From NCBI GenBank assembly GCA_031441445.1, contig GCA_031441445.1_4353.1: 24,085 bases of DNA. The stretch is one strand, 5' to 3'. Under the pieces are notes generated by a model. The model was not told where the DNA came from. It made no database searches and saw nothing but the letters and a program-made list of their open reading frames with translations. The position numbers and the translations under genes were made by a program. Origin of the DNA: a phage. Numbering within the stretch: position 1 is the stretch's first letter; the number at the start of each line of letters is the position of its first letter. Of the stretch, positions 7,597 through 24,085 are shown in pieces.

Positions 7597-8085
7597 TCAG
7601 CCTTTCACCGCGCGTCCAATAGCAACCGCCTCTTGCCACGGCTTACCGTCGAACAATGCCAGCCGCCCGGCGGTACGGCGGCGCAGGCCGAGTAACGGTT
7701 TGCCGTTCTGGTTGATGAACAGCGCCAGCTTAGCCCGCAGCGTCGCGATGTCACCAGAGCGCAGTGCCTTACCTGTACCGGTAGTAGCTGCGATAACGCC
7801 AGCGCCTGCGTTAAACACAAGGTCACACACGGCGTCGAACTGAGCCTGTGTCAGTGAGTGATGCGCTGCAGCGTCAACGGCGGCTACGGCCTTAGCCATA
7901 TCGCGATTGAGTAGCAGAAGACCCTGGCCGGGCGTGATGGTCTGCCCGGGCTTAACGTCTGGCCCGTAATGCCCGTAGCCAATAGTCAGGTACTTCTCGG
8001 CGGGTGTAGCACGATACGCAGTTCCCCGGAAGCCCTCGAACTCGGCACAAAAATGTAAGCCGTTATCTGAAATGTTTCGAGACAC
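7597..8085 (-). CDS. endolysin, GH24 lysozyme-like (T4 lysozyme / lambda R family)
   Basis: 162-aa ORF with N-terminal catalytic-region motif EFEGFRGTAYRATPAEKYLTIGYGH; GTG start at 8085 with a strong AAGGAGG RBS 8 nt upstream; follows two membrane-protein genes. Confidence 0.75.
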   Translation of the reverse strand: MSRNISDNGLHFCAEFEGFRGTAYRATPAEKYLTIGYGHYGPDVKPGQTITPGQGLLLLNRDMAKAVAAVDAAAHHSLTQAQFDAVCDLVFNAGAGVIAATTGTGKALRSGDIATLRAKLALFINQNGKPLLGLRRRTAGRLALFDGKPWQEAVAIGRAVKG

Positions 8086-8344
8086 GCTTATGTCCTCCTT
8101 TCGACTGGTAATGCAGCCACGACTGACGAATCTGTCGCAGCGCTACCAGGGTAATTAATGTTTCCGGCAGCGTCGGGGACATGCTGCCCTGTAACAAGTG
8201 GATACAACCGGCGGCGCAGACAATAGCTGTCAGGATATAGAGCACCCGGCCAAATAGCCCGTCGTCAACGCTGGGATGATACACATTAAACAGCGATGTG
8301 CCTCCGATTGCCAGCATACCGCAGAACCAGAATAACTCATTCAT
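8063..8344 (-). CDS. lysis-associated membrane protein (holin/antiholin-like, two predicted TM segments)
   Basis: ORF track 8063..8437; the internal ATG at 8344 (MNELFWFCGMLAIGG...) has a GAGGAGG RBS and overlaps the upstream stop by 8 nt; basic C-terminus. Confidence 0.45.
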   Translation of the reverse strand: MNELFWFCGMLAIGGTSLFNVYHPSVDDGLFGRVLYILTAIVCAAGCIHLLQGSMSPTLPETLITLVALRQIRQSWLHYQSKGGHKRVSKHFR

Positions 8345-8645
8345 CCGGGCCTCCTCGACGTGCGATGTATTCTCCGGCGACAATGCCAGAGAGACGGGAA
8401 TAAATTGGCATCCAGAGAATAGCAATGATGAATCCAAGGCCCGCTATTTCGCGTTCACCTGCGATACCGAACCATTGAGCGGCGAGAGGCGCACCGAATA
8501 CGGCGCACGCAAAGCCAGTGGCGAGAAAACAGAGAGCATCGACAGGGCCGGTAATAGTGGCTTTGTGTTGCCGTAAGCCTATTACCCCACCAGCTAATGC
8601 GGCAGCGAGAAGCCACCCCGTCTCTGTTTCAGTAAATTTATCCAA
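8337..8645 (-). CDS. holin-like membrane protein (three predicted TM segments)
   Basis: 102-aa ORF with hydrophobic segments GWLLAAALAGGVIGL, ALCFLATGFACAVFGAPLAA and IAGLGFIIAILWMPIY and a charged C-terminus; TTG start at 8645 with GGAGG SD 7 nt upstream; first gene of the lysis cassette. Confidence 0.55.
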   Translation of the reverse strand: MDKFTETETGWLLAAALAGGVIGLRQHKATITGPVDALCFLATGFACAVFGAPLAAQWFGIAGEREIAGLGFIIAILWMPIYSRLSGIVAGEYIARRGGPDE

Positions 8646-20972: not shown

Positions 20973-21002
20973 CCATACACCAACAATATAAGGAATTGAG
21001 AA

Positions 21003-21197
21003 ATGAAACACGAATATGACCGCAAGCCAGCACGTGACATCGTACCTGGCGACATGATTTTCAACGTTAAGACCCGCCAGCCTGTTGCCGTTGATACTGT
21101 GTTCGTCGAGTCAAACGGTAAACTGGTTATCGAAGATGTAACAGGCAACGTTACCGCGTTCGGGCGTAAAGAGCTGGTACTCTACGTTAAGGATTGA
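21003..21197 (+). CDS. hypothetical protein (64 aa)
   Basis: ATG with AAGGAATTGAGAAATG initiation region, downstream of promoter 20941-20969. Confidence 0.45.
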   Translation: MKHEYDRKPARDIVPGDMIFNVKTRQPVAVDTVFVESNGKLVIEDVTGNVTAFGRKELVLYVKD

Positions 21198-21199
21198 AC

Positions 21200-22624
21200 A
21201 TGTCTAAATTTATCCGTCGAGAGTACCAGAAGCTCATGACTTCGTTCATGCTGCAACACCCGCGCTGTAATATCTGGTGCGGAATGGGGGGAGGTAAAAC
21301 CTCCTCCACTATGTGGGTGCTCAACCGCCTGTTCCGCAACGGGCAGCTTACGGAAGAGGACCGCGTGTTAATCCTTGCCCCGTTACGTGTTGCGTCCGGT
21401 ACGTGGCCCGCTGAACAAGAGAAATGGCAATTCCCTTGTCTGCGTGTCGTAGATGCAACTGGTTCGGAGAAGCGCCGCATCGCAGCGCTGGAGTCAGATG
21501 CTAACGTGGTGTGCACTAACTACGAAGTTATCGAGTGGCTAATTGACTACTACGGCAAAGACGACTGGCCTTTTACGGTTATCGTTGCCGATGAAAGCAC
21601 GAAGCTTAAATCGTTCCGCAGCCGTTCGGGTGGTAGCAAGCGGGCAAAGGCGCTCAGCAAGGTTGCGTTCGGAAAGGTTAAGCGTTTCATCAACCTGACA
21701 GGCACACCGTCACCAAACGGCCTCAAAGACTTGTGGGGTCAGAACTGGTTTATCGACGCTGGCGAGCGCCTCGGCTCTTCGTACACAGCATTCACCGACC
21801 GCTGGTTTAACTCGGTACAGAAAGGTAAATCGGCTATGGCCCGCGAGTATCATGCACGACCGGGTGCGGATAATGAGATTCATCAGAAGATGAAAGACAT
21901 CAGCCTGACCATAGACCCTGCCGAGTGGTTTGGTTGTGAAGCGCCTGTTATCGTACCGGTGGAAATAGACCTGCCGAAGAAAGCGCGTCAGGCGTACATA
22001 GATATGGAGGAGAAGTTATTCGCAGAACTGGAGAGCGGGGAAGTTGAAGCGGCTAACGCTGCGGCGAAGACCTCAAAGTGCTTGCAGATTGCATCTGGTG
22101 CTGTATATGTATCCGGGCCAGACGGCGAAGCAACCAAAGAATGGGAGAAAGTGCACGACACGAAACTGGATGCGCTGGCGTCCATTGTCGAGGAGTTACA
22201 GGGTGCGCCGTTACTGGTAGCCTATCAGTTCAAGCACGAACTGGAGCGCGTCCTTAAGCGATTCCCACAAGCACAGGCCTTTGCCAAAGGCGCCAGGGGT
22301 AATAAGCAGATGGAAGCATGGAACCGCGGGGAAATAGAGATTTTGTGCGTCCACCCTGCGTCCGCCGGGCATGGTTTGAATTTACAGGACGGGGGTCATC
22401 ATCTGGCGTTCATCTCGCAAGGCTGGAACCTTGAGCACTATTTGCAGGTTGTTGAGCGCATAGGCCCAGTCCGCCAGAAACAGGCGGGTCACGAGCGCCC
22501 GGTGTTCCTTTATCACATCGTTGCTAAAGACACTCTGGACGAGGTTGTCGCCGCGCGTACCGACGAGAAGAAATCGGTACAGGAAGAGTTGCTTAATTAC
22601 ATGAAGAGACGAGGTAAGAAATGA
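21200..22624 (+). CDS. SNF2-like (superfamily 2) helicase
   Basis: ORF track 21194..22624 starts at TTG; ATG at 21200 preferred. Motif I CGMGGGKTSST, motif II VIVADESTKLK, motif V-like HPASAGHGLNLQ, motif VI-like QVVERIGPVRQ. Confidence 0.75.
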   Translation: MSKFIRREYQKLMTSFMLQHPRCNIWCGMGGGKTSSTMWVLNRLFRNGQLTEEDRVLILAPLRVASGTWPAEQEKWQFPCLRVVDATGSEKRRIAALESDANVVCTNYEVIEWLIDYYGKDDWPFTVIVADESTKLKSFRSRSGGSKRAKALSKVAFGKVKRFINLTGTPSPNGLKDLWGQNWFIDAGERLGSSYTAFTDRWFNSVQKGKSAMAREYHARPGADNEIHQKMKDISLTIDPAEWFGCEAPVIVPVEIDLPKKARQAYIDMEEKLFAELESGEVEAANAAAKTSKCLQIASGAVYVSGPDGEATKEWEKVHDTKLDALASIVEELQGAPLLVAYQFKHELERVLKRFPQAQAFAKGARGNKQMEAWNRGEIEILCVHPASAGHGLNLQDGGHHLAFISQGWNLEHYLQVVERIGPVRQKQAGHERPVFLYHIVAKDTLDEVVAARTDEKKSVQEELLNYMKRRGKK

Positions 22625-23136
22625 TGGATTTCGAAGAGTTTCTACTTAAAGCTCATCTGCTGGCGCGTGGGTTTGACGCTGACCGTCTCCAGGTAGTCTT
22701 AGCCCCTGGAGTAGCTACGTTTTACCTGTGGGGGTTTGACGGTAGGCTTCGCGGATACCAGCATTACAAACCACATGCCGAAAAGAACTGTAAAAACCCT
22801 AAAGACGCGCGGTACTTTACCAGAACAACAAGGCCGTGTTTATGGGGGCTTGAGTATTTGCCGGAAAGCGGGGTGGTATTTGTTACCGAAAGCATATTCA
22901 AAGCCGTAGCCTTGATGAATTGCGGGTTCAATGCTGTAAGCGCACTGGGGTCAAATATATCAACAGACCTACGGCAGCAAATGTCACTTTTGCCGTATGA
23001 CTGGGTGTGCGCTGGCGACAATGATAAAGCTGGATTAAAGTTCAGCAAAACATTCACCAGAGGATTTGTATCTAACGACCTTGATGAACTTTGTGAAGAA
23101 GAAATAACGTATCTTGCGAGGAAATTTACCAGATGA
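22621..23136 (+). CDS. Toprim-domain protein (DnaG-like catalytic core)
   Basis: 171 aa with conserved Glu (VFVTESIFKAVAL) and DxD (VCAGDNDKAG) signatures; ATG overlaps SNF2 stop (ATGA). Confidence 0.55.
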   Translation: MMDFEEFLLKAHLLARGFDADRLQVVLAPGVATFYLWGFDGRLRGYQHYKPHAEKNCKNPKDARYFTRTTRPCLWGLEYLPESGVVFVTESIFKAVALMNCGFNAVSALGSNISTDLRQQMSLLPYDWVCAGDNDKAGLKFSKTFTRGFVSNDLDELCEEEITYLARKFTR

Positions 23137-23270
23137 ACATCATAGCCCCGATTCCAGCATTGCAAAAACGTATCAAGGAACTCGAAGAAGAGGTTCTACG
23201 ACTACGGCAACAAAGAGACGCCGCTAATGCGCAACTGGCGTTTGTACTGGAGAAGTTATCAGAAGAGTAG
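23133..23270 (+). CDS. hypothetical small coiled-coil protein (45 aa, MNIIAPIPALQKRIKELEEEVLRLRQQRDAANAQLAFVLEKLSEE)
   Basis: Unlisted ORF; ATG overlaps Toprim stop (ATGA); ends 5 nt before the terminator hairpin. Confidence 0.4.
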   Translation: MNIIAPIPALQKRIKELEEEVLRLRQQRDAANAQLAFVLEKLSEE

Positions 23271-23274
23271 AGAA

Positions 23275-23294
23275 AAGGCCCCGTTTGGGGCCTT
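23275..23294. terminator. bidirectional terminator between converging replication and tail-fibre transcription units
   Basis: 8-bp stem AAGGCCCC / GGGGCCTT with GTTT loop; T-rich on both sides (AGTTTT on plus, UUCUCU on minus). Confidence 0.55.
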
Positions 23295-23298
23295 AGTT

Positions 23299-24085
23299 TT
23301 AAGCCAACGACATTCTGGAGTTAGCGAAAGCTAAAGCCTGAGCCTGCGTCGTAAACTCAGCGATGAAGAAGTCACTAAATCTGATAACAGCACCTGAACC
23401 TCCCCCAGTAGAGACGTACAGACCTACAGTACCGTTAGCGGAAGCTTTACCCACACCAAATGTGCTAATCCACTCATCAGACTTAGTATAAACGCTACCC
23501 ATAGTAATACCTAACGTTATACTCACATCTGCTGTTCCTGATTGGAGGCGAGAGTTGACGCCCCACACGTACCATCTGCCGGATGTAAGTGTCGTTCTTG
23601 ACGCTACCATTTCATATAAACCGGACCTAGGGAATGAAAATTCGGTACATGTAGCGGCGTGAAGTCCGTCAGATACAGTCGAACCGTTAACGGTACCGCT
23701 ACCAGAAAAATTATGTCTACCTGAGTCAAATGTGATAGCTTTTAACTTATTCCCCGTCGGCGTATTAAACAATCGTCCCCTTGTTAAATTTCCTCGCAGA
23801 GACAAGTTTGTAGTGGCTATCGTTGCGGATTGCGACGCGACAGACTCTACAATAACGTCCTTTCCAGAGCTGCCGTTTAAATACACGTCGTGGGCTACGA
23901 TGGTGCTTTGTGCATCCACTACAATATCCTGATTACCATCGGCGTTGTCAAAACGGCAACCATAAGTTACTAAGTTGGAGTTGGATAGCTCGATGTTATT
24001 GAGATAAGAATACTCAGCAAAGAATATCGCGGTGTCTACCAACTTGAGAACTCGCGGTTTTTGCGCCACGCCGTCTACCCGAACA
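23299..24085 (-). CDS. tail fibre / receptor-binding protein-like, C-terminal part (5' end beyond window)
   Basis: Frame open to the window edge (ORF track starts at GTG 24069, but upstream codons remain open); G/S/T/N-rich composition (…GSGTVNGSTV…, …STGGGSGAV…); last gene of a minus-strand unit ending at the bidirectional terminator. Confidence 0.4.
   Translation of the reverse strand, partial: VRVDGVAQKPRVLKLVDTAIFFAEYSYLNNIELSNSNLVTYGCRFDNADGNQDIVVDAQSTIVAHDVYLNGSSGKDVIVESVASQSATIATTNLSLRGNLTRGRLFNTPTGNKLKAITFDSGRHNFSGSGTVNGSTVSDGLHAATCTEFSFPRSGLYEMVASRTTLTSGRWYVWGVNSRLQSGTADVSITLGITMGSVYTKSDEWISTFGVGKASANGTVGLYVSTGGGSGAVIRFSDFFIAEFTTQAQALAFANSRMSLA

Follow-up and report, generated by a model that had tools for sequence, protein, structure and literature searches.

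The 24,085-nucleotide (nt) stretch of phage DNA analysed here (GenBank assembly GCA_031441445.1, contig GCA_031441445.1_4353.1; referred to in its entirety as the window) ends its early operon with a SNF2-family helicase gene, an open reading frame (ORF) of 171 amino acids (aa) and a 45-aa coiled-coil micro-ORF. The 171-aa gene is likely to be an accessory anti-defence gene of the Rad (retron anti-defence) family, occupying a cargo slot that closes the early/replication operon on its 3' side, and an anti-defence role is the best-supported reading of it. The original prediction for this locus, that the 171-aa ORF is translationally coupled to the helicase and followed by a coupled 45-aa ORF, is confirmed by the ATGA overlaps at both junctions. 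The window itself is assigned, from its nucleotide matches, to a Kagunavirus-like (Guernseyvirinae) siphophage of E. coli: positions 21000-24085 match 464 phage records, the best being Escherichia phages of the Kagunavirus type at 96-98% identity, followed by Jerseyvirus and other Guernseyvirinae.

The 171-aa ORF is a real gene, because its 93%-identical cluster holds 450 member sequences, an exhaustive profile search retrieves 632 family cluster representatives at E ≤ 1e-3, and the AlphaFold2 (AF2) model of the protein has a mean predicted local distance difference test score (pLDDT) of 94.5. The ORF begins ATGATGG, with GAGG 9 nt upstream. The Toprim glutamate and DxD motif that had been pointed out are indeed present as E90 and D133-N-D135, which do not vary among close relatives and reach at least 90% conservation when 90 family members are aligned; R16, G45, Y49, P51, Y65, G76, G138 and D153 are also conserved across this family. 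Pfam finds only Toprim_2 in the protein (residues 87-147, 23.1 bits against a threshold of 22.1), while PHROG 849, to which it belongs, is named 'DNA primase', the same label that GenBank annotators use for the gene.

Homologues of the 171-aa protein turned up in 488 of the 50,697 phage records covered by a translated search, those of Guernseyvirinae sharing 90-100% identity and the next most similar, from T5-like phages, 46-49%. Aligned with T5 ORF071 (AAX12008.1), the window protein shows 48% identity over 166 aa (E = 2e-39), and with ORF75 of the T5-like phage SP15 (189 aa), 47% over 174 aa (E = 1e-38). T5 ORF071 has been equated with Rad (PMC10644984), and SP15 ORF75 rescues deletion mutants from the retrons Ec67, Ec78 and Ec83, as well as lambda-vir from Ec48 and Se72 (10.1101/2023.03.15.532788). 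According to the same preprint, Rad reduces the msr-msd non-coding RNA (ncRNA) and the multicopy single-stranded DNA (msDNA), but not the reverse transcriptase (RT) or effector transcripts; homologues from other phages are active too, that of Proteus phage Privateer strongly and two others more weakly; the substitutions R13E, P33T, I88T, D135H and E156H weaken Rad; and single catalytic-site mutants lose activity only partly (10.1101/2023.03.15.532788). In the peer-reviewed version, ORF75 is the determinant for evading retron-Eco2 and retron-Eco7 (PMC11555353, Nat Commun 2024), and the Rad work is cited by a catalogue of anti-defence systems (PMC11370490). The anti-defence alternative raised in the original prediction therefore gains considerably from this full-length identity of 47-48% to T5 ORF071 and SP15 ORF75. 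Numbered on the 172-aa T5 form, the probed residues R13, P33, I88, D135 and E156 of Rad correspond to R16, Y35, V88, D135 and E156 of the window protein, such that three of the five are identical, one is conservative and one is different. At 34% identity and a template modelling (TM) score of 0.80, the Privateer homologue, reported as strongly active, is less like the window protein than T5 Rad is.

An older GenBank fragment of BF23 (AJ604530.1, 14.5 kb) carries a rad gene that is 99.4% identical, and a recently sequenced BF23 stock is reported to have a deletion of ~4 kb that removes rad (PMC10644984). Stocks of BF23 hence appear to differ at the rad locus, like T5j and T5n.

Both the structural model and the family profile place the 171-aa protein with primase catalytic cores. 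The search with the AF2 model in Foldseek has as its top PDB match the T7 gp4 primase fragment 1nui (query-normalised TM score (TMq) 0.66, root mean square deviation 3.9 Å, whole query aligned), and the other matches are DnaG cores of E. coli, Aquifex, S. aureus, M. tuberculosis and P. aeruginosa, with E of about 1e-6 to 1e-4; RNase M5 matches the Toprim half only (about 95 columns), with E of 0.02-0.1 and a TMq of about 0.43. Against the PDB, a 90-sequence family profile detects DnaG cores at 1.4e-6 and T7 gp4 at 0.018, with small stand-alone Toprim proteins at E > 0.4. Only this profile reached significance; searching the PDB with the 171-aa sequence by itself or with a shallow profile returned nothing significant. 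No match to the OLD, GajA or AriB models was found by PADLOC, the sole match being a weak one to the RT-associated DnaG-like model PDLC03800, which scores 17.8 bits with the window protein and 26 with T5 Rad. The protein is thus a complete RNA-polymerase domain of the DnaG/T7-gp4 type, comprising an N-subdomain and Toprim, rather than a Toprim-only or OLD-like protein; since residues 1-83 correspond to a DnaG/T7-type N-subdomain, the whole of the RNA-polymerase domain is present. Placing the Toprim domain by profile, a check suggested at the outset, accordingly assigns it to the primase (DnaG/T7) class. The suggested placement with Toprim nucleases of the OLD or RNase M5 type has to be abandoned, given E of about 1e-6 for DnaG/T7 gp4 by fold and hidden Markov model (HMM), the poorer values for RNase M5 and the lack of an OLD match in PADLOC. 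The description 'Toprim-only' overlooked the N-subdomain, although it was right to see a DnaG-like core lacking zinc-binding and helicase-interaction domains.

Indeed, the protein stops 14 residues past the Toprim domain, with neither a helicase fusion nor a helicase-interaction domain. No Zn-ribbon match was found in it or its neighbours, and a scan of all window ORFs for Cys motifs that might mark a zinc-binding partner recovered only an HNH-like ORF. Of what was named at the outset as refuting the prediction, clear homology to the core of a conventional primase was thus seen, but a zinc-binding partner was not found nearby. The same architecture holds across the family, which consists almost wholly of stand-alone proteins: most of the 150 best representatives are 160-200 aa in length, and just one of the 17 with N-terminal extensions has Cys motifs. 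Longer representatives were considered as possible Rosetta-stone fusions and rejected as such, the partners being GNAT plus Arr, a cytidylyltransferase, Mom, a CCA enzyme plus HD, and HAD, none of which is a zinc finger or helicase. They are probably gene-call read-throughs, because the partners vary in kind and correspond to genes that adjoin the family elsewhere. The GFGGR and KYxNSPET segments are conserved DnaG primase motifs upstream of Toprim. In an HMM alignment to Aquifex DnaG, which is of low confidence over this stretch, the family's Y49 falls opposite the Arg of GFGGR, and K55...P60 is all that corresponds to the KYxNSP segment.

It is very unlikely that the 171-aa protein is the replicative primase of the phage. 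T5n and SP15m, which lack rad, are viable and grow normally except on retron hosts (10.1101/2023.03.15.532788; PMC11555353). T5 has a primase of its own (AAX12049.1, 296 aa), composed of Zn_ribbon_DnaG, DNAG_N and Toprim and encoded beside the DNA polymerase. In the lineage of the window, the 761-aa helicase-primase is core (428 records), and the statement that it is an AEP-type (archaeo-eukaryotic) primase fused to a helicase is probable on motif and architecture grounds. The N-terminal region contains LDFD, YTTASH and PRFRVV motifs, i.e. DxD, SxH and PR(F/Y)R, which are common to phiFL4A gp26, a VapE helicase fusion, and to a satellite-phage protein bearing PriCT_1; such motifs are what an AEP primase should show. 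Less helpfully, Pfam recognises only AAA_25 and a weak BT4734-like_N match (E = 0.21), and the AF2 model, with a pLDDT of 38, is unusable. Nothing was found in the PDB with a 3-sequence profile of this protein, for which a word-indexed homologue search had given only three matches.

Comparison with related phages argues against a fixed partnership between the 171-aa gene and the genes on either side of it. The SNF2 helicase, counted at the megablast level, is found in 442 phage records, and the rad homologue, counted at 60% identity or above, in at least 65, or ~15% of Guernseyvirinae records; in an independent survey, two subtypes of a single Jersey-like group were the only ones noted to have the gene (PMC10783031). 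In LPSE1 the slot is empty, with the helicase stop overlapping the start of the coiled-coil micro-ORF directly (…GGTAAGAAATGAACATCATAGCC…), whereas in the window rad lies exactly between two copies of the ATGA junction that is seen once in LPSE1. Jersey has an HNH endonuclease in this slot and K1H a 61-aa ORF, while rad occupies it in Jerseyvirus strain UPWr_S1 and the divergent SaI_NFG_5579. When the window is aligned with LPSE1 and Jersey, an identical GGTAAGAAATGA junction runs into different downstream genes. As the same place is empty in LPSE1 and filled by an HNH endonuclease in Jersey and another ORF in K1H, the alignments indicate that ATGA coupling is a property of the insertion slot, and not of a partnership with the helicase or micro-ORF. 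Likewise, the 45-aa ORF is 76-82% identical in K1H, Jersey and LPSE1, all of which lack rad; it is accordingly a conserved backbone gene of Guernseyvirinae, independent of rad, rather than a partner of Rad.

The wider distribution of the family leads to the same view of the helicase. Neighbourhoods were sampled from 80 IMG/VR loci with family members, which fall into 25 groups at a 70% identity level. When all the ORFs of these loci were searched by phmmer with the window helicase, the four Guernseyvirinae loci alone had an SNF2 homologue within 8 kb, the 76 from other lineages having none. A partnership between rad and SNF2 was therefore rejected, the adjacency being confined to Guernseyvirinae among the 80 loci. 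The SNF2 helicase is a core replication/recombination gene that adjoins the cargo slot, and the functional unit once envisaged with this helicase and the VRR-NUC protein finds no support in the variable slot contents or in the other-lineage loci.

Outside the Guernseyvirinae, the neighbourhoods of the family have the signature of accessory or anti-defence islands. In T5-like phages the homologue is outside the replication module and heads the array of tRNA genes; in T5 itself it is a long way from the replication genes. Recurrent neighbours include a PNK-like AAA_33 kinase, Metallophos, an ATP-dependent ligase, the CCA-adding enzyme, NAMPT, an Asn-synthase/QueC-like protein, WYL_2 and HNH/GIY-YIG endonucleases, each in only 3-5 of the 25 lineage groups, and all-against-all clustering of about 1,250 neighbouring ORFs identified no family in more than five groups. 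A tRNA is present within 2 kb of the family gene at 5 of the 80 loci and within 8 kb at 16, always on the same strand. Linkage to tRNAs, though striking in T5-like phages, was on the former count rejected as a general rule. In Vibrio phages and the representative P0112, the family gene abuts, or is called as fused to, a CCA-adding enzyme.

Jumbo phages of Erwinia, Dickeya, Serratia and Klebsiella always have the Rad homologue in two reading frames, the frame of the N-subdomain ending '...VWG(T/S)EI...RILN*' and the Toprim part running on in the +1 frame ('...KLNLYGSTVFLTESVFKA...'). Since diverged genomes share the position of the break, this arrangement suggests a programmed +1 frameshift or a split form of two polypeptides, and not a decaying pseudogene. 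Separately, the Rad homologue of two metagenomic phages is preceded, at a distance of a few kb, by a 'tRNA-Pyl' called by ARAGORN, its CUA anticodon being that of an amber suppressor; stop-codon recoding in these phages could explain some apparent fusion proteins.

Table 1. Positions of features in the window and of related features at other loci.
Feature	Position	Strand	Basis or remark
HNH-like ORF, 122 aa	10328-10696	-	CxxC...H...H...CxxC
ORF, 170 aa	10202-10714	+	family match: none
Helicase-primase, 761 aa	12017-14302		replication module
VRR-NUC candidate, 95 aa	20685-20972		sub-threshold Pfam match, 18.6 bits against cutoff of 23.8, E 0.002
Second variable slot	21003-21200		no Dcm-type methyltransferase in window
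SNF2-family helicase, 476 aa	21194-22624	+	Pfam SNF2-rel_dom 7e-13, Helicase_C; PHROG 62 7e-165
ATGA junction, helicase stop/rad start	22621-22624	+	4-nt overlap; left edge of cargo slot
rad-like gene, 171 aa	22621-23136	+	ORF; PHROG 849 2.7e-48; Pfam Toprim_2 23.1 bits; T5/SP15 homology
N-terminal subdomain of primase core, residues 1-83	22621-22869	+	R16, conserved G45, Y49, P51, Y65, G76
Toprim domain, residues 84-157	22870-23091	+	E90 22888-22890; D133/D135 23017-23025; D153/D155/E156 23077-23088
ATGA junction, rad stop/micro-ORF start	23133-23136	+	right edge of cargo slot; sequence and alignment
Coiled-coil micro-ORF, 45 aa	23133-23270	+	PHROG 5915 2e-27; in Pfam, only sub-threshold coiled-coil families
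GC-rich perfect hairpin GGCCCCgtttGGGGCC	23276-23291		between early operon and convergent tailspike gene; read by eye
Second variable slot, locus L002	3192-4121		
Second variable slot, locus L086	1660-2484		
Second variable slot, locus L087	1826-2509		
Two-frame Rad homologue, locus L004	5010-5508		
Two-frame Rad homologues, loci L032, L037, L042, L056, L058, L063, L083	about 8001-8500		
'tRNA-Pyl', locus L053	5206-5280		ARAGORN
'tRNA-Pyl', locus L076	3894-3968		ARAGORN

Were the gene to act as an anti-retron factor, its product would be made early, together with the replication genes, and its primase-type groove and metal-dependent Toprim site would engage the structured retron ncRNA or the RNA-DNA precursor of msDNA. 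This substrate would most likely be cleaved by the Toprim site, as in the nuclease role proposed for Rad. Were ncRNA or msDNA so cleaved, the retron sensor/effector complex would never be assembled, or would be dismantled, and abortive infection would not be triggered. The protein would be dispensable for replication of the phage DNA.

Several points weigh against this account. What is said of the mechanism of Rad comes from the preprint, the peer-reviewed paper stating that it could not be determined (PMC11555353), and a search of the available literature for a later paper on the mechanism found none; the nuclease activity of Rad is so far a proposal. One of the probed positions, P33, is Y35 in the window protein, and target specificity could differ at 47-48% identity. 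The homologues that were tested all come from outside the Guernseyvirinae, among them that of Salmonella phage vB_Sen_I1, which was considered as a Jersey-like source and excluded as such, being a Tequintavirus. The gene ends a replication module, which is not an obvious anti-defence island, and the full set of primase-type catalytic residues is kept, with which polymerase activity is compatible.

This last observation bears on two of the alternatives. An auxiliary primase, in which the core makes RNA primers with template recognition provided in trans, for example by the helicase-primase or SNF2 helicase, would give the phage another means of priming, either on the lagging strand or at forks that have been restarted. 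In its favour, genuine primases account for all of the best matches by fold and profile, the acidic triad and N-subdomain are intact, the gene ends a replication operon in translational coupling to a helicase, and PHROG and GenBank both label it DNA primase. However, the protein lacks a zinc-binding domain of its own, and the HNH-like motif is the only zinc-finger candidate found among the window ORFs; about 85% of syntenic relatives lack the gene and replicate without it; and the T5 homologue is dispensable and adjacent to tRNAs in a phage with a separate Zn-ribbon primase. To these can be added the placement of Y49 opposite the Arg of GFGGR and the partial match to KYxNSP, albeit in an alignment of low confidence. 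Such an auxiliary role is consequently improbable. Because every nucleotidyl-transfer residue is kept, the protein could instead polymerise on msDNA or sequester it, neutralising retrons or other RT-based defences without degradation, either by binding msDNA or ncRNA in its template groove or by masking the sensor through RNA synthesis on single-stranded msDNA. A primase core is built to hold single-stranded DNA and a nascent RNA-DNA hybrid, the sole similarity in PADLOC is to an RT-associated DnaG-like protein, and single catalytic-site mutants of Rad are only partly inactive. Nevertheless, the lower ncRNA and msDNA reported in the preprint fit degradation better (10.1101/2023.03.15.532788), the PADLOC match is weak (17.8 bits), and there is no zinc-binding domain for template-specific initiation, leaving this the least probable of the explanations considered.

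A broader RNA-processing or repair enzyme, acting on tRNA precursors, damaged tRNAs or structured RNAs, would account for the anti-retron effect as one consequence of cutting ncRNA. The position of the gene at the head of the T5-like tRNA array, its juxtaposition with the CCA-adding enzyme in Vibrio phages and P0112, the kinase, Metallophos, ligase, CCA enzyme and Asn-synthase/QueC-like neighbours, and the shared strand of adjoining tRNAs are all consistent with this. Yet few of the sampled loci have a tRNA nearby, the neighbour families are each limited to 3-5 of 25 groups, and the window phage has no tRNA genes; as these regions are general accessory islands, the co-location of tRNA and RNA-repair genes may be incidental, and the explanation is unlikely. 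A little less doubtful, although still speculative, is a more expansive version of the anti-defence role, in which zinc-finger-less primase cores, including the forms in the Guernseyvirinae slot and in jumbo phages, would have been repurposed as broad inhibitors of RT-based immunity; they may use the nucleic-acid groove on the RNA-DNA precursor of msDNA, possibly polymerising on it or remodelling it instead of only cutting it. The precise coupled slot, exchanging with homing endonucleases, would then have extended this weapon to small siphophages, of which the conserved two-frame arrangement of jumbo phages would represent a variant that is regulated or split. Membership of the Rad family, with anti-defence as the function, is favoured over all of these.

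The remainder of the locus was also inspected. Besides the genes already described, the replication module encodes a DUF2800 PD-(D/E)XK nuclease, an Enc34-type protein binding single-stranded DNA and a family-A DNA polymerase. The counterparts in relatives of the 95-aa ORF upstream of the helicase are annotated as VRR-NUC or Holliday junction resolvase, making its identification as VRR-NUC plausible. A convergent tailspike gene comes after the early operon, and the hairpin GGCCCCgtttGGGGCC between them is a probable bidirectional terminator; it was not flagged by a consensus terminator scan because the T-run is short. The HNH-like ORF is almost wholly antisense to the 170-aa ORF listed in Table 1. 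A second variable slot lies just upstream of the SNF2 helicase: in fEg-Eco06, K1H and Jersey it contains a Dcm-type cytosine methyltransferase, between a 63/64-aa ORF and the helicase, which is absent from the window. The helicase itself is interrupted by an intein in some relatives (an 821-aa coding sequence in UPWr_S1, and annotations as 'intein-containing helicase'). The record closest to the window, OR594183.1 (locus L001), 'Escherichia phage vB_EcoM_SHAK7858', is listed in the taxonomy as Autographiviridae; Kayfunavirus, under a name in the style of myoviruses. By gene content, and by an identity of 97% to the window, it is a Kagunavirus-like siphophage, so this taxonomy line is probably wrong.

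The common annotation of rad-like genes as 'DNA primase' is probably misleading, and it is carried by many genomes, including those of Kagunavirus, Jerseyvirus and T5-like phages that are candidates for therapy. If the gene is an anti-retron factor, its presence or absence would help to predict host range on E. coli and Salmonella that bear retrons. With a full DnaG/T7 core in place of an OLD-like nuclease, the question of how Rad acts comes down to cleavage versus priming on ncRNA or msDNA, and the ATGA-to-ATGA slot beside the SNF2 helicase offers a natural insertion point for engineered payloads in these phages. The Rad family was already known from the 2023 preprint, and ORF75 from the 2024 article in Nature Communications; the window member belongs to another subfamily and genomic setting, and what is new here is the structural class lacking a zinc finger, the anatomy of the slot, the independence of the micro-ORF and the restriction of the SNF2 adjacency to one lineage.

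Set beside known systems, the window protein resembles the T7 gp4 fragment 1nui and the DnaG cores 1dd9, 1eqn, 3b39 and 2au3 in having the N-subdomain, Toprim and metal-binding acidic residues, but differs from them in lacking zinc-binding, helicase and helicase-binding domains, in a sequence identity of 14-18% and in not being a core gene of its lineage. The T5 primase AAX12049.1 likewise has a Toprim_2-type domain, in a phage that also has Rad, but is only 22% identical to the window protein (E = 0.087). With RNase M5 and the OLD family (OLD, GajA and AriB) the window protein has in common the Toprim fold and acidic metal site, and a nuclease role has also been proposed for Rad; unlike them, the window protein has the DnaG-specific N-subdomain and no ATPase domain. 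PDLC03800 is a 550-position host defence protein of defence-associated RT (DRT) systems, to which the match covers about 65 residues of the Toprim region. Both it and Rad are linked to RT-based immunity, and it could be that DnaG-like cores recur on both sides of such immunity, to judge from this weak match. The closest counterpart is Rad itself (SP15 ORF75 and T5 ORF071), a single-domain protein of the same length class (about 165-190 aa) with end-to-end homology to the window protein, which shares the Toprim glutamate, the DxD, the downstream D-x-D-E and R13/R16, and which is also encoded by an accessory gene in a variable region. The two differ in setting, the T5 gene being at the head of a tRNA array and that of the window at the end of the replication operon, after the SNF2 helicase.

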